Below, piece after piece: positions 15,302-34,130 of a stretch of DNA of 64,000 bases. The stretch comes from a plasmid, in the sequence record NZ_CP104760.1; one strand, written 5' to 3'. The notes under the pieces are model-generated. The model was not told where the DNA came from and made no database searches. It worked only from the letters and a program-made list of their open reading frames with translations. How positions within the stretch are numbered: position 1 is the first letter of the stretch; each line of letters starts with the position of its first letter. The position numbers and the translations under genes are program-made.

Positions 15302-15333
15302 AGCAGGGCGATCCAGGCAGCAACGGGGCGCGG

Positions 15334-15948
15334 TTAGCTTTGCTCAGGCAGACCCAGCTTTTCCGCCGCCCTGACGAGGTCCGAGACTGACCGGACCGCC
15401 ATTTTTTCCATTACCCTGCGCTTATGCACCTTAGCCGTTATTTCGCTGATCCCCATTTCAGCCGCAACCTGCTTGTTCAGCAGGCCGCGAATAACATACT
15501 GCATAAGCTCTTTCTCGCGCGGCGTCAGCGAACTAAAGCGCGCGGTCATTGCTCGCTTCTCCTGCGACGCCAGCGCGCATTTTTCCGACAGCGCCAGTGC
15601 TTCTGAAACCACCCTCAGCAATGCGTCCGGCATAACGGGCTTGGTGAGGAACTCAAATGCACCCGCCTTCATCGCCCTGACGGTAAGCGGGATGGTGCCA
15701 TACCCGGTCAGAAAGATGGTCGGAATCGAATAGCCCCGCTCCGTCAGATGAAGCGAGACATCAAAACCATCAAGCTCCGGCATGTTCAGATCCACTATCA
15801 GGCAGCAGGGCGTACTGTAATCGGCCTGGTCAAGAAAGGCAGACGGAGAGAGAAAAGTCGAAACCTGGTAACCTTCGGAACTGAGAAGGTTCTGCAGCGA
15901 GGCGATGACCGATTCTTCATCATCAACGATATAAATTGTTTTATCCAT
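15334..15948 (-). CDS. FixJ/NarL (LuxR-type HTH) family response regulator
   Basis: 204 aa. Receiver motifs IYIVDDEES, LIVDLNMPELDG, AFEFLTKP. C-terminal LuxR HTH (LTPREKELMQYVIRGLLNKQVAAEMGISEITAKVHKRRVMEKM). Confidence 0.9.
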   Translation of the reverse strand: MDKTIYIVDDEESVIASLQNLLSSEGYQVSTFLSPSAFLDQADYSTPCCLIVDLNMPELDGFDVSLHLTERGYSIPTIFLTGYGTIPLTVRAMKAGAFEFLTKPVMPDALLRVVSEALALSEKCALASQEKRAMTARFSSLTPREKELMQYVIRGLLNKQVAAEMGISEITAKVHKRRVMEKMAVRSVSDLVRAAEKLGLPEQS

Positions 15949-16454
15949 AAGGATGCATTCTGGCTTTTATTCTTTCTGTGTTTGCAGGCGAGTCAATATA
16001 TCCTGAACGCAGTATGAATGGAATCATCCATTGTAATGGCTAACAGCGTCATGCGTCGCTTACCCGGCTGATATTGTGCAGGTTTTAACGGCACAGAGGA
16101 AAATCATATTGATATTTTATCAGGCAACACATCATTTTCTGTTTATGCCTCGTCCTTATCACCAGGCAAGTTTTAGCATGTTAGTCTATATATTAAGGCA
16201 GTTAATCCAGCGTCTGTAATAATTCTGTCGCAGAACTTACAGACTATTCCGCTTGCAGGGTTTATGTCGCGTTTCTGGTTGGTTATTTATAGCCGCAGCT
16301 TTTTTAAGAGCCTTTTTTCACCGTTAATTCTGGTTTAAAAAATGTCGCTGACGCTGGCGTTTTATTTATATGAGATCCCGCAGAAAGAGGGCGCAGGCGG
16401 CTTTTAAAATCGCCGCGTGCGGTTGAGTAATTAGCGGAAAGTCGTCAGGCAGCC

Positions 16455-17264
16455 CTAACGCAAAGGCAGACATGAGTCGGGAAGGGCGCTGCGGTGTTTA
16501 TAGCACAGGGAGAAGAAGGCAAAAATCAGCACCAGTTCTGCGGCATCCCCGCCGTAATACATCCATTCCGCCGCCGCCTCTATTTCACTTAACGGGCTCA
16601 TGGTCGCGCGTGGATAACCGTAGCCATACATGATCTTTGCAAGAATGCCATGGGCCGCCGTCGCCAGAAACAGAACGGCGAGGCGCATCGCCCTGCCGGG
16701 ACGACGCGGCGCAGGATCGGGGCCCGCAATCGACCAGGTGAACAGATAGCCGGAGAGGACAAAATGGAGGTGCAGGAAAACAAACGCCGCGGGATGGGTC
16801 ATGCTAAACAGATAAAACGGCGTCAGGTAGAGCAGGTACATGCCGCCGATGTCGAGCACCGCCGCAGTGACAGGATGAATAAGCACACGAACGGGTCGAG
16901 CGTTAAGGAACGCCATCAGCCTGCGTGACATTTCGCGCGATGCGTTACGCAGCAAAAGTATCCCCGGCGCGCCAAATACCAGGCCGAGCGGGCCAAACAT
17001 GCCCAGCAGCAGATGCTGAACCATATGACCGCGCATATCCCGGTGGGCCCAGTCTGCTATCGGCGGCAGCATCGCCGCCATAATCATCAGGATCCCGGCG
17101 GAAAAGCTCGCCGTTCGCCAGCCGCTCCAGCGCGAGCGGGGCGAGCGCCGCAGTCGATAAGCGTAAAAGAGATAAACGCAGAGTATCAGCGCGGGCAGCA
17201 CAACCAGCAGCAAAAGCAGCAGCGCCGTGGCGCTCGACGAGCCATGATGCATGGCGTGATCCAT
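16455..17264 (-). CDS. CtaG/Caa3-type cytochrome-oxidase-assembly-factor-like (COG3336) integral membrane protein
   Basis: 269 aa with ~7 TM segments. Conserved His pair in HMVQHLLLG. Family assignment from memory of the CtaG/CopD-like pattern, moderate confidence. Confidence 0.5.
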   Translation of the reverse strand: MDHAMHHGSSSATALLLLLLVVLPALILCVYLFYAYRLRRSPRSRWSGWRTASFSAGILMIMAAMLPPIADWAHRDMRGHMVQHLLLGMFGPLGLVFGAPGILLLRNASREMSRRLMAFLNARPVRVLIHPVTAAVLDIGGMYLLYLTPFYLFSMTHPAAFVFLHLHFVLSGYLFTWSIAGPDPAPRRPGRAMRLAVLFLATAAHGILAKIMYGYGYPRATMSPLSEIEAAAEWMYYGGDAAELVLIFAFFSLCYKHRSALPDSCLPLR

Positions 17265-17713
17265 CAGCGTTTCCCTGCCGACCGGCGCAGCAACATCCAG
17301 CCGATAAGCAGCAGTAGCAACCCTGCTGCATTCCAGGTCAGATCGTACAGCAGCAGGTTATCTACGTATCGGACCTGATGCAGACGGAGAAGTTTATGAT
17401 CGACGATGCCATCAAACAGCTGGAATCCACCGAGGCCAAAAAAGAACCCCGCCCAGGCGGGCAGGCGATCTATCGCCTGACGACGGCGTAAATCGGCGAA
17501 TAAATAGAATCCCGCGACAAAAAAGATCAGCTCGCCGGAGTGCAGTATCCCGTCGGACAGCAGGCTGAACGCTGGCGTGCCCCAGTCAAAAAAATGGTGC
17601 CAGGCAAGGAGCTGGTGAAACACAACTTCATCCAGCGCAGCCATCATCCCCACCCCAAGCGGGATCGTTGCCATCAGTGACCGCCGGGGATCTTTCCGCT
17701 CCGGTAAGCTCAT
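17264..17713 (-). CDS. DUF2243-like membrane protein
   Basis: Start ATG 17713 with strong RBS AGGAGAGG. Stop overlaps the start of the CtaG-like gene. 4 TM-like segments. Confidence 0.55.
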   Translation of the reverse strand: MSLPERKDPRRSLMATIPLGVGMMAALDEVVFHQLLAWHHFFDWGTPAFSLLSDGILHSGELIFFVAGFYLFADLRRRQAIDRLPAWAGFFFGLGGFQLFDGIVDHKLLRLHQVRYVDNLLLYDLTWNAAGLLLLLIGWMLLRRSAGKR

Positions 17714-17845
17714 TGTCCTCTCCTGAGGTTGTCTGGTTTTCTTTGCCGTAAAATCCTGGTAAAAAAATGCGAGAAGTCCAGTTTTTAACTGAAGGTTCTT
17801 CACCATGACCGTTTCGCTTTCCGACTAGCAGCCAGGCGCGCGCCG

Positions 17846-18748
17846 TTATTTTTTCTCATAGCGCGCAATCTCGTGCGGCGCACGTAAACTTATCCATTCG
17901 ACAAAGCTGCGATGTTTGGCCACGTAATGCACATCCTGCCGCCAGAGCAGATGAATGGGGCGCGGCGCAGGCAGTGCATCCTCCAGCAGCGGAACCAGCC
18001 GCCCGGCCGCGATATCGTCAGCTAACAAAAACCGCGGCTGTAAAATCAGCCCCGCGCCTGCCAGCGCGGCGCGGCGTAAAGCCTGTCCGTCGTTACAGCT
18101 AAAGGTTGCGTTCTCCGGCCACAGCAGGCTGTCGCCGCTACGCCAGCCGTTAAGGCTGTTCCAGTTGCTGTAGCGCAGACAGCGGTGCGTTTTCAGCGCG
18201 TCCGTACTTTGCGGCGCACCATAGCGCGCCAGGTAGGCAGGAGCGCCCGCGATGACCATACGGTAGTCGCCCAGACGCTGAGCGACCAGCGGCGTATCAG
18301 TGGGCAGCTCGCCGATACGGAAAACAAAATCAAAACCCTCGGCAACGACATCGACAAAACGATCGCTGAGATCAAGCTCAATATGCACGTCGGGAAACTG
18401 CTGCTGAAATTCACTGCATAAGGGCGCAACAAGCGTGCTGCCCAGCGTTGTCGCGGCGCTGATGCGAAGGCTGCCGGCAGGAAAACGACGCAGGCTTTCT
18501 ATACGGTTCTCGGCTGAGTGGAGCGCATCAAGCACGTGAAGGCACTCTTCATACCAGGCCTTACCCGCTTCCGTCAGGGTCTGGCGACGGGTATTACGCT
18601 GCAGCAGCCTCGCCTGTAGCTGCGTCTCCATCTGCGCGACGGTTTTTCCCACCATCACTGAAGAGATATCGAGCCGCTTTGCCGCTTCGCTAAAGCTGCC
18701 GCTCTCGACCACCGCAACGAAAACCTCCATGCCGCGTAGTTTATTCAT
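17846..18748 (-). CDS. LysR-family transcriptional regulator
   Basis: LysR HTH: MEVFVAVVESGSFSEAAKRLDISSVMVGKTVAQMETQLQARLLQR. 300 aa. Confidence 0.85.
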   Translation of the reverse strand: MNKLRGMEVFVAVVESGSFSEAAKRLDISSVMVGKTVAQMETQLQARLLQRNTRRQTLTEAGKAWYEECLHVLDALHSAENRIESLRRFPAGSLRISAATTLGSTLVAPLCSEFQQQFPDVHIELDLSDRFVDVVAEGFDFVFRIGELPTDTPLVAQRLGDYRMVIAGAPAYLARYGAPQSTDALKTHRCLRYSNWNSLNGWRSGDSLLWPENATFSCNDGQALRRAALAGAGLILQPRFLLADDIAAGRLVPLLEDALPAPRPIHLLWRQDVHYVAKHRSFVEWISLRAPHEIARYEKK

Positions 18749-18849
18749 GATTACTAACTTTTAGTTTGGGATGTTTTAATTTTTGGCCTGTTTTTCTGCT
18801 GATTGCAATCTATCAATATGGAATCAGGTTTTATTAATGAGGAATTACA

Positions 18850-19446
18850 ATGAAAGTCATGGTAATTGGCGCCAGCGGCACCATTGGCCGGGCGGTAGTG
18901 GATAATCTTGCCCCGGATCACGACATTATTCGGGTGGGTAAAACCCAGGGCGATCTGCAGGTTGACCTGACGGATGAGTCCAGCGTTAAGCGGCTGTTTG
19001 AGCAAAGCGGCGAGCTGGACGCTATTATCGCGGCGACCGGCAGCGTTCACTTCGGCCCCCTAAATGAGATGAGCAGCGAGCAGTTCAATAAAGGGCTGCA
19101 GGATAAGCTGATGGGGCAGGTCAGGCTTGTGCTGATCGGACAGCACTATCTGAAGCCCGGCGGCGTCTTTACGCTCACCACCGGAATTCTGACCCAGCAC
19201 CCTATCCGCACCGGCGTTAACGCGACGGCGGTCAACGGCGCGCTGGAAGGGTTCGTGCTTGCCGCAGCCAATGAGCTGCAGGGGCAGCGTATTAATGCGG
19301 TCAGCCCAACGGTTCTTACTGAAGCGCTGGAGAAATATGGCCCCTTTTTCCCCGGTTTCGAAAGCGCCGCAGCCAGCCGCGTCGCGCTGGCCTATCGCCG
19401 GAGCCTGGAGGGCATTGATAACGGCAAAGTTTACCGCGTCTGGTAA
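18850..19446 (+). CDS. short-chain dehydrogenase/reductase-like NAD(P)-binding protein
   Basis: Rossmann motif VIGASGTIGRAV. 198 aa. Divergent from the LysR gene. Confidence 0.7.
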   Translation: MKVMVIGASGTIGRAVVDNLAPDHDIIRVGKTQGDLQVDLTDESSVKRLFEQSGELDAIIAATGSVHFGPLNEMSSEQFNKGLQDKLMGQVRLVLIGQHYLKPGGVFTLTTGILTQHPIRTGVNATAVNGALEGFVLAAANELQGQRINAVSPTVLTEALEKYGPFFPGFESAAASRVALAYRRSLEGIDNGKVYRVW

Positions 19447-19467
19447 GAGTGATACGCGCTGGCGAAA

Positions 19468-19746
19468 TCACTTCGCCAGCGCGTGCGCCTGTTTATAAAC
19501 AGTCAGCAGGAGCTGTTCAATATTCATAAACGGGCCTCCGGCGCTGATTGTCTGGCGCAGCCAGACAATCTCAGGCTCCACGCCTCGGGGGAACAGACGC
19601 CTGTCGCTGGCGCGTCTGAGCCAGCGGCTCAGGAAAATAATGTGTGCCGTGGGGGATCGCGCGGCCTGATATTTAGCGGCGAACTTAAGGGCGACCAGCG
19701 CGCAATAATAAAAGTGCGCTTTATCTTCCACGTCGAGCCGGTTCAT
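19468..19746 (-). CDS. hypothetical protein (92 aa), last gene of dad-containing operon
   Basis: ORF 13 bp downstream of dadX, same strand. No motif recognised. Confidence 0.4.
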   Translation of the reverse strand: MNRLDVEDKAHFYYCALVALKFAAKYQAARSPTAHIIFLSRWLRRASDRRLFPRGVEPEIVWLRQTISAGGPFMNIEQLLLTVYKQAHALAK

Positions 19747-19758
19747 CTTTAAGCCTCC

Positions 19759-20829
19759 TTAACCTGTAACGACGGGCACTCTGGGGGCCAGCGCGCTGAG
19801 TAACTCATAACCCAGGGTGCCGGCCGCGTGCGCAACGTCATCCACCGGCAGTGCGGGGCCCCACAGCTCCACCGGGCTGCCCACCTGCGCATCAGGGCAG
19901 GGGGTCAGGTCAACGGCGATCATGTCCATAGAGACGGTGCCGACGATCCCGGTTCTCACGCCATTCACCAGCACCGGCGTCCCGCTGGGAGCCTGCCTGG
20001 GATAGCCGTCCGCATAGCCGCAGGCCACAATCCCGATACGCTGCGGCCCCGCTGCGCTAAACCTGCCACCGTAGCCAACGCGGGCGCCTGTCTGCAAATG
20101 CTGCACGGCGATAATCTGGCTGGTTAAGCGCATCACCGGCATAAGGCCGGTATCGGCAATATCCTGCCAGCGACCGCTGGGCGATGCGCCATAAAGCACG
20201 ATCCCGGGACGCACCCAGTCCGCATGGGTTTGCGGATGCCATAAGGTTGCCGCAGAGTTAGCCAGGCAATGCGGCAGCCGCAACGCTGCCGTCAGCGACC
20301 CGATCAGCGCCATCGGCTCCGCGACGCCCGCGTCCTCGTCGGCGCTGGCGAAGTGGGACATAAGGATGATTTCCCCGATCTGAGGCGTGGCGCTGGCCTC
20401 ACGCCAGGCGGCATGGAGGCGCTCCGGCGCAAAGCCGAGACGGTTCATACCGGAATTCACCTTCAGGTAAACAGGAATGGGGCGCTGTACGCGAGCGGCG
20501 GCTATAGCGGCCAGCTGCCAGAAGCTGTGCACGGCGGTTGTCAGCTGATAGCGGTCGATAAGCAGCAGATCGTCAGGCTCGAAAAACCCCTCCAGCAGCA
20601 GGATCGGACCCGTCCAGCCCAGCTCCCGCAGCCGGATCGCTTCATTAAGATCGAGCAGGGCAAAACCATCGCTGCTTTGCAAAGCCCGCCAGACATGATC
20701 GATACCGTGTCCGTACGCGTTCGCTTTTACTACGGACCAGATTTTTGCCTGGCCCGCTTTCTGACGAATAAGAGCAAGATTATGCCGCAGGGCGGCAGGC
20801 GAGATTTCAGCCCGAACAGGACGTGGCAC
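19759..20829 (-). CDS. dadX: alanine racemase, catabolic
   Basis: PLP-Lys motif [10 protein letters not shown]. 356 aa. Downstream of dadA as in the enterobacterial dadAX operon. Confidence 0.85.
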
Positions 20830-20850
20830 AGGCGCTCCTCCAGCTATCGG

Positions 20851-22146
20851 TTAATGGGCTTCTACAGCCGTATCGTGGAAACGTTCTCCGGTCAGGCCGT
20901 GATAGCGCGCAACGGACAGATCGCTGAAAGGGATAGCGGGCGTGGTGCCGGAAATCAGGTCGGCTATCAGCTGCCCCGAACCGCAGGCCATCGTCCATCC
21001 CAGCGTGCCGTGACCGGTATTGAGATAGAGGTTTTTAAAGCGGGTAGCGCCAACGATCGGGGTGCCATCCGGGGTCATGGGCCGCAGCCCGGTCCAGAAC
21101 GTCGCGCTGGCGAGATCGCCGCCGCCGGGATAAAGATCCTCTACTACCATTTTCAGCGTTTCTCGCCGCGCATTTTTCAGGCGGGTATTAAAGCCGACGA
21201 TTTCCGCCATGCCGCCGACGCGAATGCGATCGTCAAAGCGCGTCACCGCGACCTTATAGGTTTCATCAAGGATGGTGGAGGCGGGTGCCTTAGCGGCGTC
21301 GGCAATGGGAATCGTCAGCGAGTAGCCTTTCAGCGGGTAAACAGGAAGGGAGACCAGCCCCTTTAACAGCCGGGTCGAAAAGGAGCCAAGCGCCACGATA
21401 TAGCGATCGGCGGTCATCAGACGCTCTCCGCACTTCACGCCGATAATACGGTCGCCCTCTGCGATCAAACGCTCGACGTCAAGGTCATAGACAAAGGTCA
21501 CGCCAGCCGCCGCGGCCCGCTGCGCCAGCTTTTTAGTAAACATCTGGCAGTCGCCCGTTTCATCGTTAGGCAGGCGCAATCCTCCCGTCAGCTTGTGCGC
21601 CGAGGCGGCAAGCGCTGGCTCCGAGAGCCGCAGCTGATGCGGCTCCAGCAGCTCATAGGGCACGCCAGCCTCCTCTAATACAGCAATATCCTGCGCCGCA
21701 TGAGCGAACTGCGCGTCGGTGCGAAACAGCTGTAAGGTGCCGCCCTGACGCTCGTGGTAATGCATCCCGGTGTCGCGGCGCAGTTCACGCAGACAGTCGC
21801 GGCTGTATTCGGCGATGCGCACCATACGCGCTTTGTTAACGGCATACTGCTCCGCGTTGCAGTTTTTCAGCATCTGCCACATCCACTGCAGCTGAAACAG
21901 CGAGCCATCCGGGCGAAGCGCCAGCGGCGCGTGCTTCTGAAACATCCATTTGATGGCTTTTAACGGGATGCCCGGCGCAGCCCAGGGCGTCGCGTAGCCG
22001 GGCGAGATCTGTCCCGCGTTGCCCGCGCTGGTCTCCTCCGCGGCGGCTGGCTGACGATCCACCACAATCACTTCGTGTCCGGCTTTGGCGAGATACCACG
22101 CGCTGGTCACGCCGACCACGCCGCTACCCAAAATTAATACTTTCAT
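20851..22146 (-). CDS. dadA: D-amino acid dehydrogenase small subunit
   Basis: FAD motif [31 protein letters not shown]. 431 aa, typical DadA length and N-terminus. Confidence 0.85.
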
Positions 22147-22193
22147 CTGGCGAACTCCTTGAGCGTAGCGGCTGCCAGGCAGCCGTTTCAGGG

Positions 22194-23690
22194 TTAGCTG
22201 TTGCTGGGGAAGGCAAACTGCGCCGCTTCCTGCGATTTCTGCCGGGGCCAGCGCTGAGTGATGGTTTTACGACGCGTATAGAAGCGCACGCCGTCAGGAC
22301 CGTAAGCATGCAGATCGCCGAACAGTGAACGTTTCCAGCCGCCAAAGCTGTGAAAGGCGACCGGCACCGGCAGCGGCACGTTAACGCCGACCATGCCCGC
22401 TTCGATTTCGTTGCCGAAGGTGCGCGCCGCTTCGCCGTCACGCGTAAAAATACAGGTGCCGTTGCCATATTCATGACGGTTGATCAGCGCGATGGCTTCG
22501 CCAAGCGAGCTGACGCGCACCACGCAGAGAACGGGTCCGAATATCTCCTCTTTATAGATACGCATCTCCGGCGTGACGCGATCGAACAGGCATCCCCCGA
22601 GGAAGTAGCCGTTCTCGTGGCCTGCTACGCGCAGCGTGCGGCCGTCAATGACCAGCTCAGCGCCCGCGGCGACCCCGTCATCGATGTAGCCGGTCACCTT
22701 TTCCTTGTGCGCGGCGGTCACCAGCGGGCCCATATCCAGACCGCAGGCGGTGCCCGCCCCGACCTTCAGCGCAGTGATTTTGGGCGAGAGCCGGGCGATG
22801 AGCGCATCAGCCACCGCATCGCCGACACATACCGCAACAGAGATCGCCATGCAGCGCTCACCGCAGGAGCCGTAGGCTGCCCCCATCAGCGCGCTGACCG
22901 CGTTATCAAGATCGGCGTCCGGCATGACGACCGCATGATTTTTCGCTCCGCCCAGCGCCTGCACGCGTTTGCCGCGCCGGGTGCCTTCGCGGTAGATATA
23001 CTCGGCAACCGGCGTAGAGCCGACAAAGCTGATCGCCTTCACCTCGTCGCTTTCGATCAGCGCATCGACCGCCTCTTTATCGCCGTTCACCACGTTCAGC
23101 ACGCCTGCGGGTAAGCCAGCCTGCTGGAACAGCGAGGCGATAAGCAGCGTGGAGCTGGGATCGCGCTCAGAGGGCTTGAGCACAAAGGTGTTGCCGCAGG
23201 CGATCGCCAGCGGATACATCCACAGCGGCACCATGGCTGGAAAGTTAAAGGGCGTAATGCCAGCCACCACGCCTACCGCGTGAAAGTCACTCCATGAGTC
23301 GATATCCGGTCCCGCATTGCGGCTGTATTCGCCTTTAAGCAATTCAGGCGCCGCGCTGGCGTATTCCACGTTCTCTATTCCGCGTTTCAGTTCGCCCGCC
23401 GCGTCCTCCAGAGTCTTGCCATGCTCTTCGCTGATAAGCTGAACGATCGCTTTTTCATTGGCCTCCAGCAGCTGTTTAAAGCGAAACAGCACCTGCACCC
23501 GCTTCGCCGGGGGCATGCTGCGCCAGGCGGGCAGCGCGGCGCTGGCGGCAGCAATCGCCTCCTGTACCGTGGTGGCGCTCGCCAGCTCAACCTGACGAAT
23601 CGCTTCGCCGGTAGCGGGGTTGAACACGCTGGCTGTACGGCCGTCGGGCTTGCGCATTTCGCCGTTTATCAGATGGGTAATAATGGTCAT
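22194..23690 (-). CDS. mmsA: CoA-acylating methylmalonate/malonate-semialdehyde dehydrogenase
   Basis: Start ATG 23690 ([10 protein letters not shown]), preceded by GAGG. ALDH motifs and catalytic Cys region. MmsA-type N-terminus and length (~498 aa). Confidence 0.8.
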
Positions 23691-23704
23691 GTTGCTTGCC
23701 TCGC

Positions 23705-25036
23705 TTAACTGATGTGATGCAGGGCTTCGCCCACCGCGTCGAACAGGCGATCCAGTTCCGCGGGCTGCGTGTTGAACATCGGGCCGAACTGCAGCGTGTC
23801 GCCGCCAAAACGCACGTAAAAACCCGCTTTCCATAGCGCCATCCCGGCATCGAAAGGCCGAACCGTGGCATCGCCGTCCCGCGGCGCCAGCTGAATAGCG
23901 CCCACCAGACCGCAGTTACGGATATCGACGACGTTTGGACAGCGGGCAAGGGCGTGAAGGGTGCGCTCAAAGCAGGGCGCCAGTTCGGCAGACTGGGCAA
24001 TCAGCGACTCGCTCTCCAGCAGGTCGAGGGTCGCAAGCCCCGCCGCGCAGGCGACCGGGTGCGCTGAGTAGGTGTAGCCGTGGGCAAACTCAACGGCGTG
24101 CTCGGGCAGCGACTGCGACATAAAGGTGTTATAGATTTCGCTGCTGGCGACCACGCCGCCGAGCGGAATAGCGCCGTTAGTGACCTGCTTGGCGAAGTTG
24201 AGCATATCTGGCGTGACGCCAAAATACTCCGCGCCGCTCCAGCGCCCCATGCGGCCAAAGCCGGTAATGACCTCATCGAATATCAGCAGGATATTGTGCT
24301 GGGTACAGATTTCACGCAGGCGCTGCAGATAGCCGCGCGGCGGGATAATGGCGCCAGCAGATCCCGAGAGCGGCTCGACGATCAGCGCGGCAATGTTCGA
24401 GGCGTCATGCAGCTCAATCAGCCTGAGCATCTCATTCGCCAGCGCTTCGCCGCCGGTTTCGGCCTGTCCTCGGGTAAAGGGGAGATCGGCCTGTAGCGTG
24501 TGCGGGAGATGATCGACATCCATAAACTGGCCGAACATCTTGCGGTTGCCGCCGATGCCGCCCAAGCTGGTCCCGGCGATATTCACGCCGTGGTAGCCGC
24601 GCGCCCGGCCAATCAGTTTGGTTTTCGCCGGCTGGCCTTTGGCGCGCCAGTAGGCACGCGCCATCTTCACTGCCGTATCGGCTGATTCGGAGCCCGAACC
24701 GGTAAAAAAGACGTGATTTAACTCGCCTGGCATGCGGCGCGCGATCTTGTCGGCCAGTTGAAACGAGAGCGGATGACCGTACTGGAAGCCGGGCGAGTAA
24801 TCGAGCGTGCTGAGCTGCTTCGCCACGGCCTGCTGGATCGCGCTGCGGGTATGGCCAGCGCCGCAGGTCCAGAGTCCGGAGAGGCTGTCGAATATCTGCC
24901 GCCCCTTATCATCCGTTAGCCAGCGTCCCTCAGCGGCAACGATAAAGCGCGGATCGCGCTGGAAATTACGGTTGGCGCTGAATGGCATCCAGTGCGCCTG
25001 TAAATTGAGCGAGGCGGTATTAACGGATTCGGACAT
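23705..25036 (-). CDS. class-III omega-aminotransferase (beta-alanine/omega-amino acid:pyruvate transaminase-like)
   Basis: 443 aa. Motifs SLSGLWTCGAGH, FFTGSGSESADTAVKMAR and DEVITGFGRMG (PLP-Lys region) match the omega-amino acid-pyruvate aminotransferase subfamily. Confidence 0.8.
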   Translation of the reverse strand: MSESVNTASLNLQAHWMPFSANRNFQRDPRFIVAAEGRWLTDDKGRQIFDSLSGLWTCGAGHTRSAIQQAVAKQLSTLDYSPGFQYGHPLSFQLADKIARRMPGELNHVFFTGSGSESADTAVKMARAYWRAKGQPAKTKLIGRARGYHGVNIAGTSLGGIGGNRKMFGQFMDVDHLPHTLQADLPFTRGQAETGGEALANEMLRLIELHDASNIAALIVEPLSGSAGAIIPPRGYLQRLREICTQHNILLIFDEVITGFGRMGRWSGAEYFGVTPDMLNFAKQVTNGAIPLGGVVASSEIYNTFMSQSLPEHAVEFAHGYTYSAHPVACAAGLATLDLLESESLIAQSAELAPCFERTLHALARCPNVVDIRNCGLVGAIQLAPRDGDATVRPFDAGMALWKAGFYVRFGGDTLQFGPMFNTQPAELDRLFDAVGEALHHIS

Positions 25037-25134
25037 GATTTTTCCTCCAGACGGGTGTCAGGAGAGTTTGCAATCAAGTCTCAGGTAAGTTAAATGCATA
25101 TAAACTCACCTTCACTTATGGAAATTCTCACCTT

Positions 25135-26037
25135 ATGAAAAGCAAATCTCTGGCCCAGGTCACCGATTTTGACCTGAAGCTGCTGCGCATATTTAAAACG
25201 GTGAGCGAGTGCGGAAGTTTCTCAGCCGCCGAAAGCCTGCTGGGCATTACGCGCTCCGCCATCAGCCTTAACATGAGCGACCTGGAAAAGCGGCTGGGTA
25301 TGCGTCTGTGCCAGCGCGGACGATCGGGCTTTGCGCTGACGGATGAAGGGCGCGAGATTCTCAGGCACAGCGACAGCATGATGGCGGCGATTGAGAACTT
25401 CCGGCAGCAGGTTAACCAGATGCACAAGCAGCTGCGCGGCGAGTTCAATATCGGGATTATTAATAATCTGGTGACGCAGCCGCGTATGAAAATCACCCAT
25501 GCGCTGGATTCGCTGCGCGCCAGCGGCCCGGATATTCGGCTGAATATCAGCATGATGACCGCTTCTGATATCGAACGCGGGCTGATGGACGGCCGGCTGC
25601 ATGTCGGCGCGCTGCCGCTGACGTCGCCGATTTCGGGACTGGACTACATGCAGCTTTATGATGAGAAATCAAACCTTTACTGTAGCAGCAAGCACCCGCT
25701 CTTCTCTCAGGAAACGCCGCCTGACGATGCACAGCTGATGCAGTTTGACGCCGTTGCGCCGGGCTTTCGCATGACGGCCGAGGCGATTGGCATGCATCAG
25801 AAGCTTCACTGCACGGCGACCGCCTCTGATCGTGAAGGCATCGCGTTTCTGATCCTGACCGGACGCTTTATCGGCTTCCTGCCCGATCACTATGCCGCGC
25901 AGTGGGTGGAAAAAGCGCAGATGCGCGCCGTTGCGCCAGTGCGCCTGCACTTCAGCAGTAAAATCGGTATCGCCACCCGCACCGGCCGCCGTGCAAATGC
26001 CATTCTGGAAAAATTCATCCAGTCACTCGATCTCTAA
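25135..26037 (+). CDS. LysR-family transcriptional regulator (divergent from aminotransferase operon)
   Basis: HTH: LKLLRIFKTVSECGSFSAAESLLGITRSAISLNMSDLEKRLGMRLCQR. Confidence 0.85.
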   Translation: MKSKSLAQVTDFDLKLLRIFKTVSECGSFSAAESLLGITRSAISLNMSDLEKRLGMRLCQRGRSGFALTDEGREILRHSDSMMAAIENFRQQVNQMHKQLRGEFNIGIINNLVTQPRMKITHALDSLRASGPDIRLNISMMTASDIERGLMDGRLHVGALPLTSPISGLDYMQLYDEKSNLYCSSKHPLFSQETPPDDAQLMQFDAVAPGFRMTAEAIGMHQKLHCTATASDREGIAFLILTGRFIGFLPDHYAAQWVEKAQMRAVAPVRLHFSSKIGIATRTGRRANAILEKFIQSLDL

Positions 26038-26247
26038 AACCCGCCTCTCTTCTGCTTTATGACGCCGGTCACACCCATCTGGCGATCGGCGTCAAAGTTT
26101 GACCATAAGTAAACCATATTGGTTGACTTTGTTAATTTTGTGCTTCTATTCTCCGAGTGGTAATGCATACAAGGATGCACACAAATTAAGGAAGTAACAC
26201 ACCCAACTGTTCCTGTTCGCAACATCTAACGTTTGGACGAGGTCGTT

Positions 26248-27081
26248 ATGGTCAGTGTTCGTTTATCCGCTTTTAAAAAGCTCGCCTGCTGTCTGGCGCT
26301 GGGCAGCGCGCTGTGCGCCCCGGCATCTTCCGCCCTGGCTGCCGACAACTTCTGGCAGACAATTCAGCAAAAAGGCGTGCTGCGCTGCGGCGCGGCACCA
26401 GCGGCGCCTTACGTCATGCGCGATCCAAAAACGCAGCAGTACAGCGGCTACTTTGCCGAACTGTGCCGCGACTTTGCGCAGAACGTGCTGAAGGTGAAGG
26501 TGCAGTTCGTTGACGCCAGCTGGGACACGCTGGTCGCGGGCCTGCAGAGCGACAAATGGGATTTGGCGATGGCGCTGAATCAGACGCCGGAGCGCGCGCT
26601 GGCGGTGGGCTTCTCAGTACCGGCGCAGGATTATCAAATCTCTTTCCTGGTCAATAAGCAGAACCCGAAGGTAAACGGCCTGGGCAATAAACTGGCGGAT
26701 TACGATAAGGAAGAGGTGACCTTCGCGGTAATGTCGGGCACGGCGCAGGATAAAGCGATCAGCGCCGCGATCAAAAAAGCCAAAATTATGCGTCTGCCGG
26801 GTAACGACGAAAGCCGCATGGCCCTGATGGCGCGGCGCGCGGACGTACTGGTTGACGCCAGCGACACCAACCACCTGTTCGCCGTGGCGAACCCGGACTG
26901 GGCGAAAGAGATCCTGCCCACCCCGGCGCTGGCGAAGCAGGGCGTCTCCTTCGGCCTGCCGCGCGCTGTCTCCGCGGCCGATCTGGATGTACTTAACATT
27001 TACCTGAGCCAGCGTCGCGCCACGGGCGATATCGACAGGCTGGTTAACCAGGCATCCATTCAGGCGAACGCCGCTAAATAA
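26248..27081 (+). CDS. polar amino-acid ABC transporter substrate-binding protein (family 3)
   Basis: Start ATG 26248 after GGACGAGG. Signal peptide ending SSALAADN. SBP_bac_3-like layout. Confidence 0.75.
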   Translation: MVSVRLSAFKKLACCLALGSALCAPASSALAADNFWQTIQQKGVLRCGAAPAAPYVMRDPKTQQYSGYFAELCRDFAQNVLKVKVQFVDASWDTLVAGLQSDKWDLAMALNQTPERALAVGFSVPAQDYQISFLVNKQNPKVNGLGNKLADYDKEEVTFAVMSGTAQDKAISAAIKKAKIMRLPGNDESRMALMARRADVLVDASDTNHLFAVANPDWAKEILPTPALAKQGVSFGLPRAVSAADLDVLNIYLSQRRATGDIDRLVNQASIQANAAK

Positions 27082-27137
27082 CAGCTGATTGAATTTCACA
27101 GAGTCGCGTGCATGCCGCACGCAGCGGAGAAATAACT

Positions 27138-27974
27138 ATGAATGGCTCAACCAATCTGGCGGCGGCTCCCGCTCGCCCGCAGGACGTACGCCCGTTATTT
27201 ATCAATGAATTTAATAAAGGCGAATTTATTCAGCTGGAAAACGTCAGCAAGGCATATGGTGATTTGGTCGTTATGGATAATTTCCAGCTCAGCATGAAAA
27301 ACGACGACCGGCTGGTGATTATTGGGCCTAGCGGCAGCGGTAAAAGTTCTTTGCTGCGCGTATTAATGGGGCTGGAAGGGATTCAGCGCGGAACCATTAA
27401 TTTTCAGAAGCAACACTATATTGTCGGCGACAAAGAGAAGCAGGCAAAAATCGTCGATAATAATATTCAGAAAAAAATAGGAATGGTATTTCAGCACTAC
27501 ACGCTCTTCCCGCATCTCTCTGTTTTACAGAACCTGATCCTGGCGCCGGTTAAGGTGCACAAGGTGGCGAAAAAAACCGCCACCGATAAGGCGCGCGCTT
27601 TGCTGGCGCGCTTCGGGCTGGAAAGCAAGCTTAACGCCTATCCGAGCCAGCTGTCGGGCGGACAGAAGCAGCGTGTGGCGATTGCGCGCGCGCTGATGCT
27701 GGAGCCGGAGCTGATGCTGTTTGACGAAGTTACTTCCGCGCTCGATCCGGAAATGGTCACCGAAGTGCAGAACGTGATGATGCAGCTTGCCGAGCAAAAA
27801 ATGGCGATGATTATCGTGACCCACGATATGCACTTTGCGCGCAATATCGCCTCGCGCGTTATTTTCTGCGCTAACGGAAGGATCGTCGAACAGGGTCATC
27901 CTGAAATGTTATTTACCTGCCCGAAAGAGACCCGCACCCGTGAGTTTCTGGAAAAAGTCTTACACCTTAATTAA
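27138..27974 (+). CDS. amino-acid ABC transporter ATP-binding protein
   Basis: Start ATG 27138 after GGAG. Walker [13 protein letters not shown] signature LSGGQKQRVAIARAL. Walker B LMLFDEVTSALD. Confidence 0.85.
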   Translation: MNGSTNLAAAPARPQDVRPLFINEFNKGEFIQLENVSKAYGDLVVMDNFQLSMKNDDRLVIIGPSGSGKSSLLRVLMGLEGIQRGTINFQKQHYIVGDKEKQAKIVDNNIQKKIGMVFQHYTLFPHLSVLQNLILAPVKVHKVAKKTATDKARALLARFGLESKLNAYPSQLSGGQKQRVAIARALMLEPELMLFDEVTSALDPEMVTEVQNVMMQLAEQKMAMIIVTHDMHFARNIASRVIFCANGRIVEQGHPEMLFTCPKETRTREFLEKVLHLN

Positions 27975-27983
27975 GGGGGCGCG

Positions 27984-28655
27984 ATGGATTATCAATTTAA
28001 CTTCCACTTTCTCAGCGGACATTTCGACGCGCTGTGGGATGGCTTAAAAATAACCCTTGAGCTTTCACTGATGGCAAACGTGCTTGGCCTGACGCTGGGA
28101 TTTATTTTATGCCTGATGGCGATGAGCCGCTTTTCTGTTATTCGCTGGCCAACGAAATTATTTATTGAGTTTTTTCGCTGTACGCCGGTATTGCTGCAAA
28201 TCGTCTGGTTTTACTACTGCGTTCCAATGATGTTCAACCTGTTTATCGACCCGATATATATGGGCTTTCTGGCGCTAGGGCTGAACCTGGCCGCGTTTAA
28301 CGCCGAGGCCTACCGCGCGGGCGTGCAGGCCGTACCGCGAGAACATCACGACGCTGGCGTAGCGCTGGGGCTGAACGGCCTGCAGCAGACGCTTTATGTG
28401 GTGCTGCCGCAGGCGTTTCGCAGCGCGCTGCCGGTGCTGATGACCAACGGCATTTCCATCCTGCAGCAGACGGCGCTGGTCGCGATTGTCGCCATCTCCG
28501 ACCTGATGTACGTGGGGAAGAACATTGCCACCGAGAGCTATCGTCCGCTGGAAACCTACTCGCTGATCGCGCTGATCTACTTCGCGCTATCGCTGCCGAT
28601 TTCCCAGCTGGTTTCCTGGATCGAGCGTCGTCAGGACGCGGCGACGGCGCGCTAA
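27984..28655 (+). CDS. amino-acid ABC transporter permease (His/Glu/Gln/Arg/opine family)
   Basis: 223 aa, 5-6 TM segments. Permease of the polar amino-acid type. Confidence 0.8.
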   Translation: MDYQFNFHFLSGHFDALWDGLKITLELSLMANVLGLTLGFILCLMAMSRFSVIRWPTKLFIEFFRCTPVLLQIVWFYYCVPMMFNLFIDPIYMGFLALGLNLAAFNAEAYRAGVQAVPREHHDAGVALGLNGLQQTLYVVLPQAFRSALPVLMTNGISILQQTALVAIVAISDLMYVGKNIATESYRPLETYSLIALIYFALSLPISQLVSWIERRQDAATAR

Positions 28656-28665
28656 GGAGCGGATT

Positions 28666-29331
28666 ATGACGCTTGATTTCACGCAGGTTTTTTCTTACTG
28701 GCACGTGCTACTGCAGGGGCTGGGTATCACGCTGATTTTTACGCTGAGCTGCGCCGTGCTGGGAAGCCTGGCGGGCTTTGTTATCAGCCTGCTGCGCCTC
28801 TCCTCTTTTGCGCCGCTGCGCTGGCTGCTCACGCTCTACGTGGAGTTCTTTCGCGGAACGCCGCTGCTGATCCAGCTGTTCTGGGTGTTCTTTTGCTTTC
28901 CGGTGGTCTTCCGGCTCGATATTTCGCCCTGGGTCTGCGTCACGCTTTCACTGGTGATGTATATGGCGGCGATCACCAGCGAAACCTTTCGCGGCTCGCT
29001 GAAGTCGATCGCTGGCGAGCAGCATGACGCCTGCGTGGCGCTCAGCCTGACGCCTGCCGCCAGGGTGCTTTACGTTATTTTCCCGCAGGCGCTGCTGCGC
29101 GCCGTGCCAACGTTGCTGTCGAACGTGGTCAGCCTGTTTAAAGAGAGCGCGCTGATCTCGTCCGTCGGCGTCGCCGACCTGATGTTCGTCGGCCAGAACA
29201 TATCCAACAGTACGGCGCGTCCGGTTGAGTTTCTCACCGCCGTCGCTGTGATCTATTTCGTCGTGGCATTCCCCTTAACGCGTCTGGTGGGCGTCGTCGA
29301 GTCGCGTTTGCTGCGTCGCTACGCCCTTTGA
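28666..29331 (+). CDS. amino-acid ABC transporter permease (second subunit)
   Basis: 221 aa, paralogous to the preceding permease. Confidence 0.8.
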   Translation: MTLDFTQVFSYWHVLLQGLGITLIFTLSCAVLGSLAGFVISLLRLSSFAPLRWLLTLYVEFFRGTPLLIQLFWVFFCFPVVFRLDISPWVCVTLSLVMYMAAITSETFRGSLKSIAGEQHDACVALSLTPAARVLYVIFPQALLRAVPTLLSNVVSLFKESALISSVGVADLMFVGQNISNSTARPVEFLTAVAVIYFVVAFPLTRLVGVVESRLLRRYAL

Positions 29332-29356
29332 TAACCGATCCACAGGAGCTGTAACC

Positions 29357-30235
29357 ATGAAGATGAAAGGCATTTTACCTGCGCTGGTCACCCCGTTTAA
29401 CGATGCGGGCGACGTCGATCACGATCAACTGGCCGCGATTCTGGAGTATCAGCTTAAGGCGGGCGTAAGCGGTTTTGTACCGCTCGGCTCGACCGGCGAA
29501 TACTATGCGCTCACCAACGAAGAGCGCCGTCAGGTACTGAAAACGGTGAAAACCGTGGTGGGGGATCGCGGCACGCTGATCGCAGGTGCCAACGGCTCCT
29601 GTACCCGCGAGGTGCTGGAACAGGTCAGACAGACGGTTGAGGCGGGCTACCACAATCTGCTGATCGCGCCGCCCTATTACGCGCTGCCGTCACAAGAGGA
29701 GCTGATAGCGCATTACCAGGCGATTTTAAATGAATTTAGTGACATTAACCTGGTTCTCTATAACTATCCCGTGCGCACCAATGTAGAGGTAGGCTTTGGC
29801 GTGCTGGACGCGTTTAAAGATCATCCTCGGGTCGTCGGCATTAAGGAGAGCAGCGGCAGCGTGCTGCGCGCCGTTGAGATTGGCAACGCTTATAAAGCGC
29901 ATTATCAGCTCTCCTGCGGCTCCGACGACGTCGCCTTTGACTTCTTTATGTGGGGCGCCAGCAGCTGGATCTGCGGACCGGCCAACTGCTTCCCGGATCA
30001 GATCTGCGACTTCTACCGTAAGTTCAGCAGCGGCGATCTGGCTGGCGCGCAGAACGTGATGCGCGCGCTGTTCCCGGTGATGGCGAGCATGGAAGAGGGC
30101 AAATTTATTCAGAAGGTAAAATATGGCTGCGAGCTGGCGGGCTTCAGGCCGGGCAATGCGCGTATGCCGCTGCTGCCGCTGACCGCCGAAGAGAAGGCCG
30201 ATTTCCGCAAAATTTTTGAAGCGTCGCAGGGCTAA
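29357..30235 (+). CDS. DapA/DHDPS-family lyase (candidate 1-pyrroline-4-hydroxy-2-carboxylate deaminase, HypD-like)
   Basis: DHDPS-family N-terminus ILPALVTPF...GSTGEYYALT. 292 aa. Genomic context with hydroxyproline genes. Confidence 0.65.
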   Translation: MKMKGILPALVTPFNDAGDVDHDQLAAILEYQLKAGVSGFVPLGSTGEYYALTNEERRQVLKTVKTVVGDRGTLIAGANGSCTREVLEQVRQTVEAGYHNLLIAPPYYALPSQEELIAHYQAILNEFSDINLVLYNYPVRTNVEVGFGVLDAFKDHPRVVGIKESSGSVLRAVEIGNAYKAHYQLSCGSDDVAFDFFMWGASSWICGPANCFPDQICDFYRKFSSGDLAGAQNVMRALFPVMASMEEGKFIQKVKYGCELAGFRPGNARMPLLPLTAEEKADFRKIFEASQG

Positions 30236-30297
30236 ACCGACTGGCGCGCAGGCTGGCGAATAGCCCGTTTGTCAGCCGCTTAACTGAGTGAAACAAC

Positions 30298-31563
30298 ATG
30301 TCGAAACAGCAGCAGTCAGTAGTGATTGGTGGCGGTATTGTTGGCGTCTGTTGCGCCCTCTACCTGCAAAAGGAGGGGCATCAGGTGTGGCTGATCGATC
30401 CGGCCGCGCCGGGCGACAGCACGGCCAAATGGAGCTGCGGGCAGATGGCGGTGAGCGAAATTATCCCGCTCTCTAAGCCAGGCATACTCAAGCGTATTCC
30501 CGGCTGGCTGCTGGATCAGACCGGGCCTTTGGCGCTGCGTCCGGCGGCGGTGCCGTCGATTTTACCCTGGTTTTTACGCTTCGTCGGCAACGCGCGTCCC
30601 AGCCGCATTAACGCGATTTCGCAGGCGATGGCGACGCTTACGCGTGAAGTCTACAACGATTTTGCCGCGCTGCTGGCGCTCTGCCCGGATAAAACGCTGC
30701 TTGGTCAGCGTCCGGTAATTGAAGTGTTTGATACGCCGCACGGCCTGGCGGCCGAGCGCGAGCACCTGGAGCTGCGCGAGCGGCTGGGCTTCAAGGCTGA
30801 GATGCTCGACGCGGGCGCCATTGGCGAACTGGAGCCGGTGCTGGCGGGCAAGTTTTCCCACGGCGTGCTCTTTCCCGACTGGTGCGCGGTCAGCGATACC
30901 AAAGGTTTTATCGCCGCGCTCACCGAGGCGTTCGTGCGTCAGGGCGGCATACGCATTGACACCGAAGCGGCCACTATTCTCGAGGCGCAGGGCGTAGCCA
31001 CCGGCGTCACGCTGCACGACGGCCGTATGCTCTCTGCCGATCACGTTGTGGTGGCGGCGGGAACCGGTTCGCGCCGCTTTTTCCCGCAGCTTGGGGTGCG
31101 CGTGCCGCTGACCGGCATTTCCGGCTATCAGGCGCTCCTGCCGCAGCCAGAGGTGGAGTTTCGTCACTCGGTCATCTATGCGGATGGCGGTTTTTGCTTT
31201 ACGCCCATGACGCGGGGTCTGCAAATTGGCGGCACCATCGAGTTTGCAGGCGCCGACGCCAGACCTGACTTCAGGCGCGCGGAAATTATCCTGCAAAAGG
31301 CGCGCAGACTGCTGCCGCAGCTTAACGACACGGCGAAGGAGTTTGGCGTAGGGCATCGTCCTTTTTTACCCGATACCAAACCGATCATCGATCGCTCGCG
31401 CCGCCTGCAAAACGTCCTGATGGCTTTTGGTCACGGGCAGCTCGGCCTGACGCTGGGTGCCACTACGGGTCGCCTGATCGCCGATCTTGCCGCGAAGCGT
31501 TCGACTGCGCAGGACCTGACGCCCTTTAGTGCCTATCGATTTATGGAAGGAGAACGCACATGA
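30298..31563 (+). CDS. FAD-dependent oxidoreductase (DadA/DAO superfamily; candidate D-hydroxyproline dehydrogenase HypO-like)
   Basis: FAD dinucleotide motif VVIGGGIVGVCCALYLQKEGHQVWLID. 421 aa. Confidence 0.65.
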   Translation: MSKQQQSVVIGGGIVGVCCALYLQKEGHQVWLIDPAAPGDSTAKWSCGQMAVSEIIPLSKPGILKRIPGWLLDQTGPLALRPAAVPSILPWFLRFVGNARPSRINAISQAMATLTREVYNDFAALLALCPDKTLLGQRPVIEVFDTPHGLAAEREHLELRERLGFKAEMLDAGAIGELEPVLAGKFSHGVLFPDWCAVSDTKGFIAALTEAFVRQGGIRIDTEAATILEAQGVATGVTLHDGRMLSADHVVVAAGTGSRRFFPQLGVRVPLTGISGYQALLPQPEVEFRHSVIYADGGFCFTPMTRGLQIGGTIEFAGADARPDFRRAEIILQKARRLLPQLNDTAKEFGVGHRPFLPDTKPIIDRSRRLQNVLMAFGHGQLGLTLGATTGRLIADLAAKRSTAQDLTPFSAYRFMEGERT

Positions 31564-33041
31564 GCTTTAGCAACACCCTGTTTATCAATGGAGAGTGGAA
31601 GCCACCGGTCAGGGGCGGCAGCTTCGATACCATCGATCCCGCAACTGAGGTCGCTATCGCGCAGGTGGCGGCGGCCACCAGAGAGGATGTTGATCTGGCG
31701 GTTCAGGCGGCACGGCGCGCCTTTGACGACGGCGGCTGGCCTCTGCTGAGCGGAAAGCAGCGCGCTGACTATCTGCGCCGCATCGCCAGCCTGATCCGCG
31801 ATAAACAGCAGACGCTGGCGGAGCTGGAGGTGCGCGACAACGGTAAGCCGCTGCCGGAGGCGCTGTGGGATATTGGCGATACCGCCTACTGCTTCGACTT
31901 TTACGCCGACCTGGCGGAGAAGCTGGATGGCGAGCGAGAGCAGACGGTCGCGCTCACCGACGAACGCTTCAGCTCGGTCGCGCGCAAAGAGCCGGTAGGC
32001 GTCTGCGGCGCGATCGTGCCGTGGAATTTCCCGATGCTGATGGCGGCCTGGAAAGTGGCGCCTGCGCTGGCGGCGGGCTGTACCGTCGTGCTGAAACCCT
32101 CGGAGGTCACGCCGCTTACCGCCCTGCAGCTGGCGGAGATTGCCCGCGAGGCAGAGCTGCCGCCGGGCGTGCTCAACGTTATCACCGGCTTTGGCCCGGA
32201 GGCTGGCGCGCCGCTGAGCGAGCACCCGGATGTCGACAAGCTCGCCTTCACCGGCAGCGTGCCGACCGGCCGTAAAATCATGCAGACCGCGGCCGCTGAT
32301 ATTAAAAACGTCAGCCTTGAGCTGGGCGGGAAGTCCGCTTTTATTGTGTTTGACGACAGCGATATTGAAAAAGCAGTGGAGTGGATCCTCTTCGGTATTT
32401 TCTGGAACAAAGGCGAAGTCTGTTCCGCGACGTCACGCGTGCTGGTACAGCGCGGACTCTATGAGCCTCTGCTGGCGCGGCTGGTGGAGGAAGCGGAGAA
32501 GATCCGCATCGGCAACGGCATGCAGGCGGACGTGCTGCTGGGGCCGCTGGTTAATGCGGCGCAGTATGATAAGGTCCGGCGCGCTATCGCGCAGGGCGTG
32601 GAGCAGGGCGCGACGCTGCTGAGCGGGGGGGCGCGTCCGGCGGGACATGAGAAGGGCTTTTTCCTGCAGCCGACTATTTTTACCGATATGACGGAAGAGA
32701 GCGATATCTGGCGGGAAGAGATCTTCGGCCCGGTGGTCTGCGTGCGGGCGTTTGACAACGAAGCGGAAGCCATCGCCTCCGCCAACCGTTCGCGCTTTGG
32801 CCTGGCGGCCGCTGTTATGTCAGCCGATCTCGAACGCGCGGAGCGGGTAGCGCGCAGGCTACGGGCAGGCATCATCTGGATCAACTGTTCGCAGCCTACC
32901 TTCACTGAGGCGCCGTGGGGCGGCTATAAGCAGAGCGGTATCGGCCGCGAGCTAGGCGAATGGGGATTAAACAACTACCTGGAAATCAAACAAATTACCC
33001 GCTACGACAGCGAAGAGCCCTGGGGCTGGTACCTGAAATAA
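31560..33041 (+). CDS. NAD(P)-dependent aldehyde dehydrogenase (candidate alpha-ketoglutarate-semialdehyde dehydrogenase)
   Basis: ALDH motifs FTGSVPTGRKI, ELGGKSAFIVFDD and catalytic Cys in GEVCSATSRV. Start overlaps the upstream stop (ATGA). Confidence 0.75.
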   Translation: MSFSNTLFINGEWKPPVRGGSFDTIDPATEVAIAQVAAATREDVDLAVQAARRAFDDGGWPLLSGKQRADYLRRIASLIRDKQQTLAELEVRDNGKPLPEALWDIGDTAYCFDFYADLAEKLDGEREQTVALTDERFSSVARKEPVGVCGAIVPWNFPMLMAAWKVAPALAAGCTVVLKPSEVTPLTALQLAEIAREAELPPGVLNVITGFGPEAGAPLSEHPDVDKLAFTGSVPTGRKIMQTAAADIKNVSLELGGKSAFIVFDDSDIEKAVEWILFGIFWNKGEVCSATSRVLVQRGLYEPLLARLVEEAEKIRIGNGMQADVLLGPLVNAAQYDKVRRAIAQGVEQGATLLSGGARPAGHEKGFFLQPTIFTDMTEESDIWREEIFGPVVCVRAFDNEAEAIASANRSRFGLAAAVMSADLERAERVARRLRAGIIWINCSQPTFTEAPWGGYKQSGIGRELGEWGLNNYLEIKQITRYDSEEPWGWYLK

Positions 33042-33052
33042 GAGATAACGCG

Positions 33053-34078: not shown

Positions 34079-34130
34079 CTGATGCTGACCGCTAACATGC
34101 CTTTAAATTCTTCAGCCAAAGAGTCGGATA

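Follow-up and report, generated by a model that had tools for sequence, protein, structure and literature searches.

A probable beta-alanine catabolic operon with a paralogous dadA-dadX pair on a plasmid of Pantoea piersonii

Organization of the locus

The window analyzed here, a stretch of plasmid DNA of 64,000 nucleotides (sequence record NZ_CP104760.1), contains a compact cluster of five minus-strand genes in which those for an omega-aminotransferase (aptA) and a semialdehyde dehydrogenase (mmsA) are directly followed by dadA, dadX and a small open reading frame (ORF), here called orf92. We describe this cluster as a probable beta-alanine catabolic operon that possesses its own dadA-dadX (dadAX) pair. 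The host plasmid of ~278 kb is from Pantoea (formerly Kalamiella) piersonii. The AptA protein is 100% identical to a P. piersonii protein. Along its entire length, the 6.5-kb region shares 99.0% identity with p277859, a circular plasmid of P. piersonii URMC-2103A041. A P. soli plasmid of 276 kb has the genes in the same order, with 82% identity to the 6.5-kb region. The features of the locus are as follows.

25135..26037, plus strand: divergent gene of a LysR-family regulator (Pfam HTH_1 and LysR_substrate)
25037..25134, unstranded: lysR-aptA control region of 98 bp, with a presumed LysR-dependent promoter
23705..25036, minus strand: aptA, bauA-like omega-amino acid (beta-alanine):pyruvate aminotransferase (NF052567; similarity to 4B98)
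22194..23690, minus strand: mmsA, bauC-like coenzyme A (CoA)-acylating (methyl)malonate-semialdehyde dehydrogenase (TIGR01722; similarity to 5TJR)
22169..22185, minus strand: GC-rich stem-loop in the mmsA-dadA spacer, GGCUGCC-UGG-GGCAGCC, without a U-tract
20851..22146, minus strand: dadA paralog, D-amino acid dehydrogenase, operon copy (PRK00711)
19759..20829, minus strand: dadX paralog, catabolic alanine racemase, operon copy (NF002970), with a GTG start and a GGAGGAG ribosome-binding site
19468..19746, minus strand: orf92 (92 amino acids), optional fifth gene, 12 bp after dadX, with an AAGGAGG ribosome-binding site
19455..19483, unstranded: perfect 12-bp hairpin over the orf92 stop codon, between the convergent orf92 and short-chain dehydrogenase (SDR) genes

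An earlier note on this DNA had given the same gene order on the minus strand with gaps of 12-47 bp, and this description is exact: from aptA to orf92, the ORF listing and a reading of the junctions give gaps of 14, 47, 21 and 12 bp. The divergent LysR gene that it had placed upstream is present as well, 98 bp from aptA and with both domains listed above. A Shine-Dalgarno sequence precedes every gene from aptA to orf92. The start of mmsA is the ATG at 23690, 14 bp past the aptA stop; a longer mmsA ORF (to 23834) was rejected, as it overlaps aptA and its TIGR01722 match begins only at residue 53. On the other side of the cluster, the convergent SDR gene ends 21 bp past orf92. A search of the window against Rfam gave no match, and a repeat search gave no sign of an insertion in the form of flanking repeats.

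AptA, MmsA and the regulator

Family assignments were judged against the curated NCBIfam cut-offs, which all four enzymes exceed. AptA matches NF052567 with 694 bits (cut-off 500) over residues 11-442 and also the Pfam Aminotran_3 domain. Over 435 residues and with zero gaps, it shares 79.8% identity with 4B98, the solved beta-alanine:pyruvate transaminase of P. aeruginosa, and it is close to two further omega-amino acid:pyruvate aminotransferases of known structure, 4UHM (800 bits) and 3A8U (750 bits), which come from P. putida and Pseudomonas sp. From the identity of ~80%, we infer that AptA is of the pyruvate-dependent beta-alanine type and would use pyruvate rather than 2-oxoglutarate as the amino acceptor. 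MmsA scores 663 bits with TIGR01722 (cut-off 448), 942 bits with the solved methylmalonate-semialdehyde dehydrogenase 5TJR and 772 bits with another such structure, 4ZZ7. By position, the LysR gene at 25135..26037 is the counterpart of BauR and PP_0595, and it is kept beside aptA in most of the loci examined.

P. putida requires the orthologous pair PP_0596/PP_0597 for growth on beta-alanine and 3-aminoisobutyrate, and the adjacent LysR protein PP_0595 activates the orthologous promoter upon addition of either compound (bioRxiv 10.1101/2021.12.09.472016). The same study reads the fitness defects of the dad genes, which are unlinked in P. putida, as a signature of pyruvate-dependent transamination. 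The conversion of beta-alanine to malonate semialdehyde and on to acetyl-CoA, with a return of alanine to pyruvate, as set out in the earlier note, is thus accepted chemistry for the P. putida orthologs, with the Dad route acting there in trans. The substrates of the plasmid enzymes would include beta-alanine and probably also 3-aminoisobutyrate and related omega-amino acids.

The operon-borne and the chromosomal dadAX pairs

The DadA protein of the window matches PRK00711 with 720 bits (cut-off 383) over residues 1-418. DadX matches NF002970 with 616 bits, a narrow margin over the cut-off of 600. The alignment columns of E. coli DadX K35 and Y253, which we take to be the pyridoxal phosphate lysine and the catalytic tyrosine, respectively, are conserved in all operon copies.

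The earlier note had suggested a search of the genome for another dadAX copy. Such a copy is indeed found in P. piersonii: the canonical DadA (P0257 = WBG92392.1) is encoded on a 3.88-Mb contig in the context nhaB-fadR-ycgB/dadA-dadX, whereas a DadA of the plasmid type (P0238 = WBG93338.1) is annotated 'plasmid' in the same species. Both DadA types occur in one sequencing run, SRR23994397. Since a canonical dadAX sits on the P. piersonii chromosome, the operon pair is an extra, dedicated copy. Identity between the window DadA and P0257 is 72% in a local BLASTP alignment and 69.8% in the multiple alignment; the window DadX and its chromosomal counterpart share 62%.

The surroundings of the two types also differ. 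Canonical dadA-dadX genes of Pantoea lie between fadR-ycgB (ycgB being of the SpoVR family) and a major facilitator superfamily (MFS) gene followed by cvrA, with ~490 bp of non-coding DNA upstream. In E. coli, dadA-dadX stands alone between ycgB and cvrA, which bears out the contrast with E. coli drawn in the earlier note. In the canonical copies, the non-coding DNA upstream of dadA spans 329-507 bp, compared with 47 bp for the operon copy. A comparison of CRP sites upstream of dadA identified a near-consensus site in E. coli only and was uninformative for Pantoea.

Sequence comparison separates the operon proteins from the canonical ones. DadA identity is 75-94% between canonical copies (83-95% in Erwiniaceae) and 77-98% between operon copies, but 69-77% between the two types; the corresponding values for DadX are 70-79%, 69-93% and 60-67%. 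In a neighbor-joining tree the operon DadAs form a clade of their own with 75/100 bootstrap support. Located after mmsA, plasmid-borne and in a separate clade, the window dadA does not behave as an ortholog of the canonical enterobacterial dadA.

Linkage, selection and history of the block

A dadA of the operon type lies directly downstream of mmsA in all 12 distinct contexts examined, with a spacer of 36-51 nt. These contexts are from P. piersonii, P. soli, P. latae, Kalamiella sp., Erwinia sp. CGal63 and two metagenome-assembled genomes, as well as from Enterobacter ludwigii-type contigs, Klebsiella variicola, Pantoea sp. FN0302 and one metagenome contig. They span three enterobacterial families and include plasmids and DNA flanked by insertion sequences (IS) or Tn3 elements. 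No dadA was found within 10 kb of the examined Pseudomonas, Acinetobacter, Xenorhabdus and Photorhabdus loci, and the Tatumella loci likewise have no dadA nearby. None of 5,426 complete E. coli genomes contains the cluster, although one source labels a cluster member 'Escherichia c...'.

When P. piersonii is compared with P. soli, the ratio of nonsynonymous to synonymous substitution rates (dN/dS) is 0.05 for aptA, 0.05 for mmsA, 0.10 for dadA, 0.09 for dadX and 0.25 for orf92. For the plasmid dadA and dadX, this indicates purifying selection. In ten fused loci, the pairwise divergences of MmsA, DadA and DadX correlate with r = 0.72-0.90. Judged from these comparisons, the block is inherited as a unit and selection maintains its genes. 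The suggestion of the earlier note that dadAX was placed here by selection for co-expression is supported by the purifying selection and the 12/12 linkage. It has to be qualified in that the dadAX arm was apparently lost repeatedly, so that selection for it is not universal.

The clade of operon DadAs is as deep as the divergence of AptA and MmsA among the same loci, which suggests that the fusion is old and that the distal genes were later lost on several occasions. We consider this history, with its repeated loss of the dadAX arm, to be at least as likely as a gain or insertion by recombination. A simple insertion of dadAX between aptA-mmsA and the SDR gene, first inferred from Chimaeribacter, was abandoned, as the interleaved AptA tree described below and the correlated divergences count against it.

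Several loci deviate from the full set. Pantoea sp. FN0302 (loci L093/L094, 5126-9929) carries aptA-mmsA-dadA without dadX and orf92, and then the same convergent SDR gene and LysR flank that the window has. This variant is an intermediate state in which racemization must come from a host enzyme. In many Pantoea, Tatumella, Photorhabdus and Xenorhabdus loci found as AptA relatives (L001-L080), only lysR-aptA or aptA is present, without mmsA; in these, either the semialdehyde step must be supplied elsewhere or the aminotransferase must have another role. The fused operon of Kalamiella sp. (L003) is chromosomal. There (15648-16444, then 16977-20644), dadX is followed by an ORF with a Tlde1 domain (L,D-transpeptidase-like, of a type VI effector family) and a small ORF, past which lie the core genes icd, rluE and mnmA. 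In the E. ludwigii-type loci (L084-L086, 10548-12476), dadX is followed by a 407-residue DAO-family flavin adenine dinucleotide (FAD) oxidoreductase gene and a pyridoxamine-phosphate-oxidase-like gene, with heavy-metal P-type ATPase and ArsR-like genes further on. In K. variicola (L092), the cluster adjoins IS and Tn3 transposase genes.

Transcription signals

The lysR-aptA region contains the blocks TAGGTGAG, CCATAA, ATTTAACTTA, TGCAAACTCTTC and GGAG, which are strongly conserved in 14 enterobacterial loci, whether these carry dadAX or not. A promoter scan of this region found no strong sigma-70 consensus, which fits an activator-dependent promoter. In the cluster region, the scan detected neither a sigma-70-like promoter nor, at any of the junctions, a terminator-like site; its few terminator-like matches fall within genes and are no more than expected by chance. 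The GGAG ribosome-binding site in front of the operon dadA is conserved in all fused loci. Taken together with the gene spacing, these signals suggest that aptA, mmsA, dadA, dadX and orf92 are likely to be co-transcribed from the lysR-aptA promoter.

The stem-loop in the mmsA-dadA spacer requires a more careful look. A hairpin is found at this position in nine of the ten fused loci, with stems that differ in sequence. The hairpin of the window does not exceed shuffled sequence in stability (z = -0.2), and RNAalifold analysis of the spacers gave a consensus of only 4 base pairs. With such values we do not claim a selected RNA structure in the spacer. The hairpin may be a relic of an mmsA terminator, or it may act as an attenuating or mRNA-stability element. 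At the distal end of the cluster, the 61-nt stretch that holds the hairpin at 19455..19483 has a minimum free energy of -25.7 kcal/mol; this hairpin is not followed by a T-run and was not called by the terminator scan, and it likely marks the end of the operon transcript.

The small gene orf92

With its dN/dS of 0.25 and its membership in a family, orf92 is a real gene. The family comprises ~90 small proteins with an HFYYC...WL motif and invariant Cys and Trp residues, and the AlphaFold model of orf92 is a confident four-helix bundle (predicted local distance difference test score, pLDDT, of 95). The protein evolves very fast: its identity across three divergent operons is 40-64%, where that of DadA is 84-88%. 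A homolog after dadX is also present in loci L088 (5969-6262) and L096 (4001-4279), one of which, on a metagenome contig, encodes a protein 40% identical to that of the window; the other fused loci lack it, and relatives elsewhere are found in unrelated contexts. No Pfam or NCBIfam model matches orf92, the DUF2913 match to its relatives is weak (6/31), and a fold search of the PDB returned no meaningful match (best E = 0.9). We regard orf92 as an optional passenger of the operon.

Proposed function and alternative explanations

The most probable explanation of these findings is that the cluster is a plasmid-borne, LysR-controlled operon for beta-alanine catabolism, in which a dedicated paralogous dadA-dadX pair serves as the arm that recycles pyruvate and releases ammonia. 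AptA would transfer the amino group of beta-alanine to pyruvate, yielding malonate semialdehyde and L-alanine, and MmsA would convert the semialdehyde to acetyl-CoA, CO2 and NADH. DadX would racemize L-alanine to D-alanine, which DadA, a membrane-associated flavoenzyme, would oxidize to pyruvate and NH4+ with quinone (Q) as the electron acceptor. The predicted net reaction is beta-alanine + CoA + NAD+ + Q + H2O -> acetyl-CoA + CO2 + NH4+ + NADH + QH2. The dadAX arm would thereby regenerate the acceptor, prevent a build-up of alanine and free the nitrogen, and with the DadX and DadA steps the transamination would become an irreversible oxidative deamination. As part of the same proposed transcription unit, the arm would be independent of the dad regulation of the host, which suits a module that moves horizontally.

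A number of observations weigh against this explanation. The AptA tree interleaves loci with the full set, loci with only dadA, loci with only mmsA and loci with aptA alone; aptA-mmsA-dadA is the state of Pantoea sp. FN0302, and aptA-mmsA that of Chimaeribacter and P. coffeiphila. The dadAX arm is hence often dispensable, and a chromosomal dadAX can presumably serve in trans. The support for the operon DadA clade is moderate at 75/100, and the tree does not fix the position of its root. The hairpin in the mmsA-dadA spacer sits where unfused relatives carry terminator-like hairpins after mmsA and could attenuate read-through. Finally, any substrate range derived from sequence is tentative, and the orthologous Pseudomonas enzymes are promiscuous in vitro (bioRxiv 10.1101/2021.12.09.472016).

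A different reading is that the genes are adjacent without being co-expressed, i.e. that an aptA-mmsA operon stops at the hairpin and dadA-dadX(-orf92) is a separate unit for alanine or D-amino acids that happens to be its neighbor on mosaic accessory DNA. A hairpin has been kept at the ancestral site of the mmsA terminator, and what follows it varies between dadA, dadAX and dadAX-orf92, with the arm often missing altogether. However, the spacer of 36-51 nt contains no U-tract and is too short for a promoter, and the scan found no promoter-like site. Furthermore, all 12 contexts are linked to mmsA, the divergences are correlated, and the long upstream region of the canonical copies is absent. 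We therefore regard adjacency without co-expression as unlikely.

A more ambitious version of the proposed function is that an old dadAX lineage has co-evolved with aptA-mmsA into a mobile, host-independent 'transaminase-to-deaminase converter', the enzymes of which (perhaps together with orf92) are kinetically or physically specialized, for example for the channelling of alanine from AptA through DadX to DadA. We consider this version unlikely.

It is also conceivable that the operon-borne DadX and DadA have changed their job and act on another amino acid, either a different D-amino acid or the product of a different amine donor. Their clade is only 60-77% identical to the canonical enzymes, DadX exceeds its cut-off only narrowly (616 versus 600), and DadA is known for its broad substrate range. 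Nevertheless, the best matches of both proteins are still the DadA and DadX models over the full length, with the K35 and Y253 columns conserved, and L-alanine is the sole amino acid expected from the upstream enzyme. The variant with dadA alone also makes sense if a host racemase supplies D-alanine. A changed substrate is thus quite improbable. As for a dadAX pair that is the only one of the genome and was relocated next to aptA-mmsA without a dedicated function, nothing was found in favor of this idea, and it is refuted by the chromosomal P0257 locus, found in the same sequencing run as the plasmid copy and ~70% identical to it.

Neighbouring plasmid cargo

Next to the LysR gene and divergent from the operon, the plus strand at 26233-34841 carries a catabolic cluster of the hydroxyproline type. 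It comprises a four-gene amino-acid ABC transporter, a DapA-like protein, a D-amino-acid-dehydrogenase-like FAD protein (30298-31563), an aldehyde dehydrogenase (31560-33041), a protein resembling proline racemase and hydroxyproline dehydratase, and a GntR regulator. In Pantoea, Chimaeribacter, Enterobacter and Klebsiella, as well as in a strain with the label P. putida NBRC 14671, this cluster keeps its synteny with lysR/aptA; in view of this shared synteny, the hydroxyproline-type and aptA clusters travel together.

The remaining window DNA carries the usual accessory genes of a plasmid, including one for a pyrroloquinoline quinone (PQQ) glucose dehydrogenase. An aerobactin-like siderophore cluster at 47299-57492 contains genes for a TonB-dependent receptor, IucD-, IucC-, IucB- and IucA-like proteins, an MFS exporter and a siderophore-interacting protein, the names being taken from the annotation of the 99%-identical plasmid p277859. 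The region 9734-15948 encodes an 1855-residue protein with Ser/Thr-kinase-like, ATPase and FixL-like histidine-kinase regions, and then a convergent FixJ/TtrR-like response regulator. Between the latter and a YafC-like LysR gene, the minus strand at 16455-17806 encodes a CtaG-like cytochrome oxidase assembly protein and a DUF2243 membrane protein.

Relation to known systems and significance

The front half of the operon resembles the bauRABCD locus of P. aeruginosa and PP_0595-PP_0597 of P. putida, in which a divergent LysR gene, a beta-alanine:pyruvate transaminase and a CoA-acylating semialdehyde dehydrogenase lie in one operon. In Pseudomonas, however, alanine goes to an unlinked dad operon under Lrp/DadR control, whereas here dadA-dadX directly follows mmsA. 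The P. aeruginosa locus also contains the accessory genes bauB and bauD (a permease) beside bauA and bauC; a bauB-like gene and a permease are not part of the window operon, which consists of aptA, mmsA, dadA, dadX and orf92 only.

The back half corresponds to ycgB-dadA-dadX-cvrA of E. coli in that the same two enzymes, matching the same NCBIfam models, are encoded in the same order with a short gap. The E. coli upstream region reportedly binds Lrp. In contrast to the canonical pair, which is chromosomal and has an upstream region of its own, the window pair has 47 bp upstream, lies on a plasmid, falls into a clade of its own and is found alongside the canonical one.

The closest parallel to the arrangement as a whole comes from taurine degradation, where clusters pair the aminotransferase Tpa with a 'pyruvate-regenerating alanine dehydrogenase' (Ald): this enzyme, which turns alanine back into pyruvate and sets ammonia free, is encoded in one cluster with the pyruvate-dependent Tpa and induced along with it (PMC8667426). 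The enzymes are unrelated, however, as the taurine system relies on a single reversible, NAD-dependent Ald, and the operon described here on a racemase and a quinone-linked, effectively irreversible dehydrogenase. A description of an aptA/bauA-mmsA-dadA-dadX operon was not found in the open-access literature searched. While the bau-type route, the DadX/DadA route and the principle of acceptor regeneration are known, a dedicated dadAX lineage fused to a beta-alanine operon and moving on plasmids among Enterobacterales is undescribed in that literature.

In summary, the operon is a modest variation on known pathways rather than a new kind of biology. For omega-transaminase biocatalysis, where the removal of alanine and the regeneration of pyruvate are the usual bottleneck, DadX and DadA together offer an irreversible, quinone-linked alternative to alanine dehydrogenase. 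With one dadAX copy in cis and one in trans, each strain that contains both is a testable system for the value of operon versus regulon membership. Furthermore, the locus is a natural example of a design rule: a pathway built on a pyruvate-dependent aminotransferase needs a sink for alanine, and here this need would be met by a dadAX duplicate within the catabolic operon itself, on mobile DNA.

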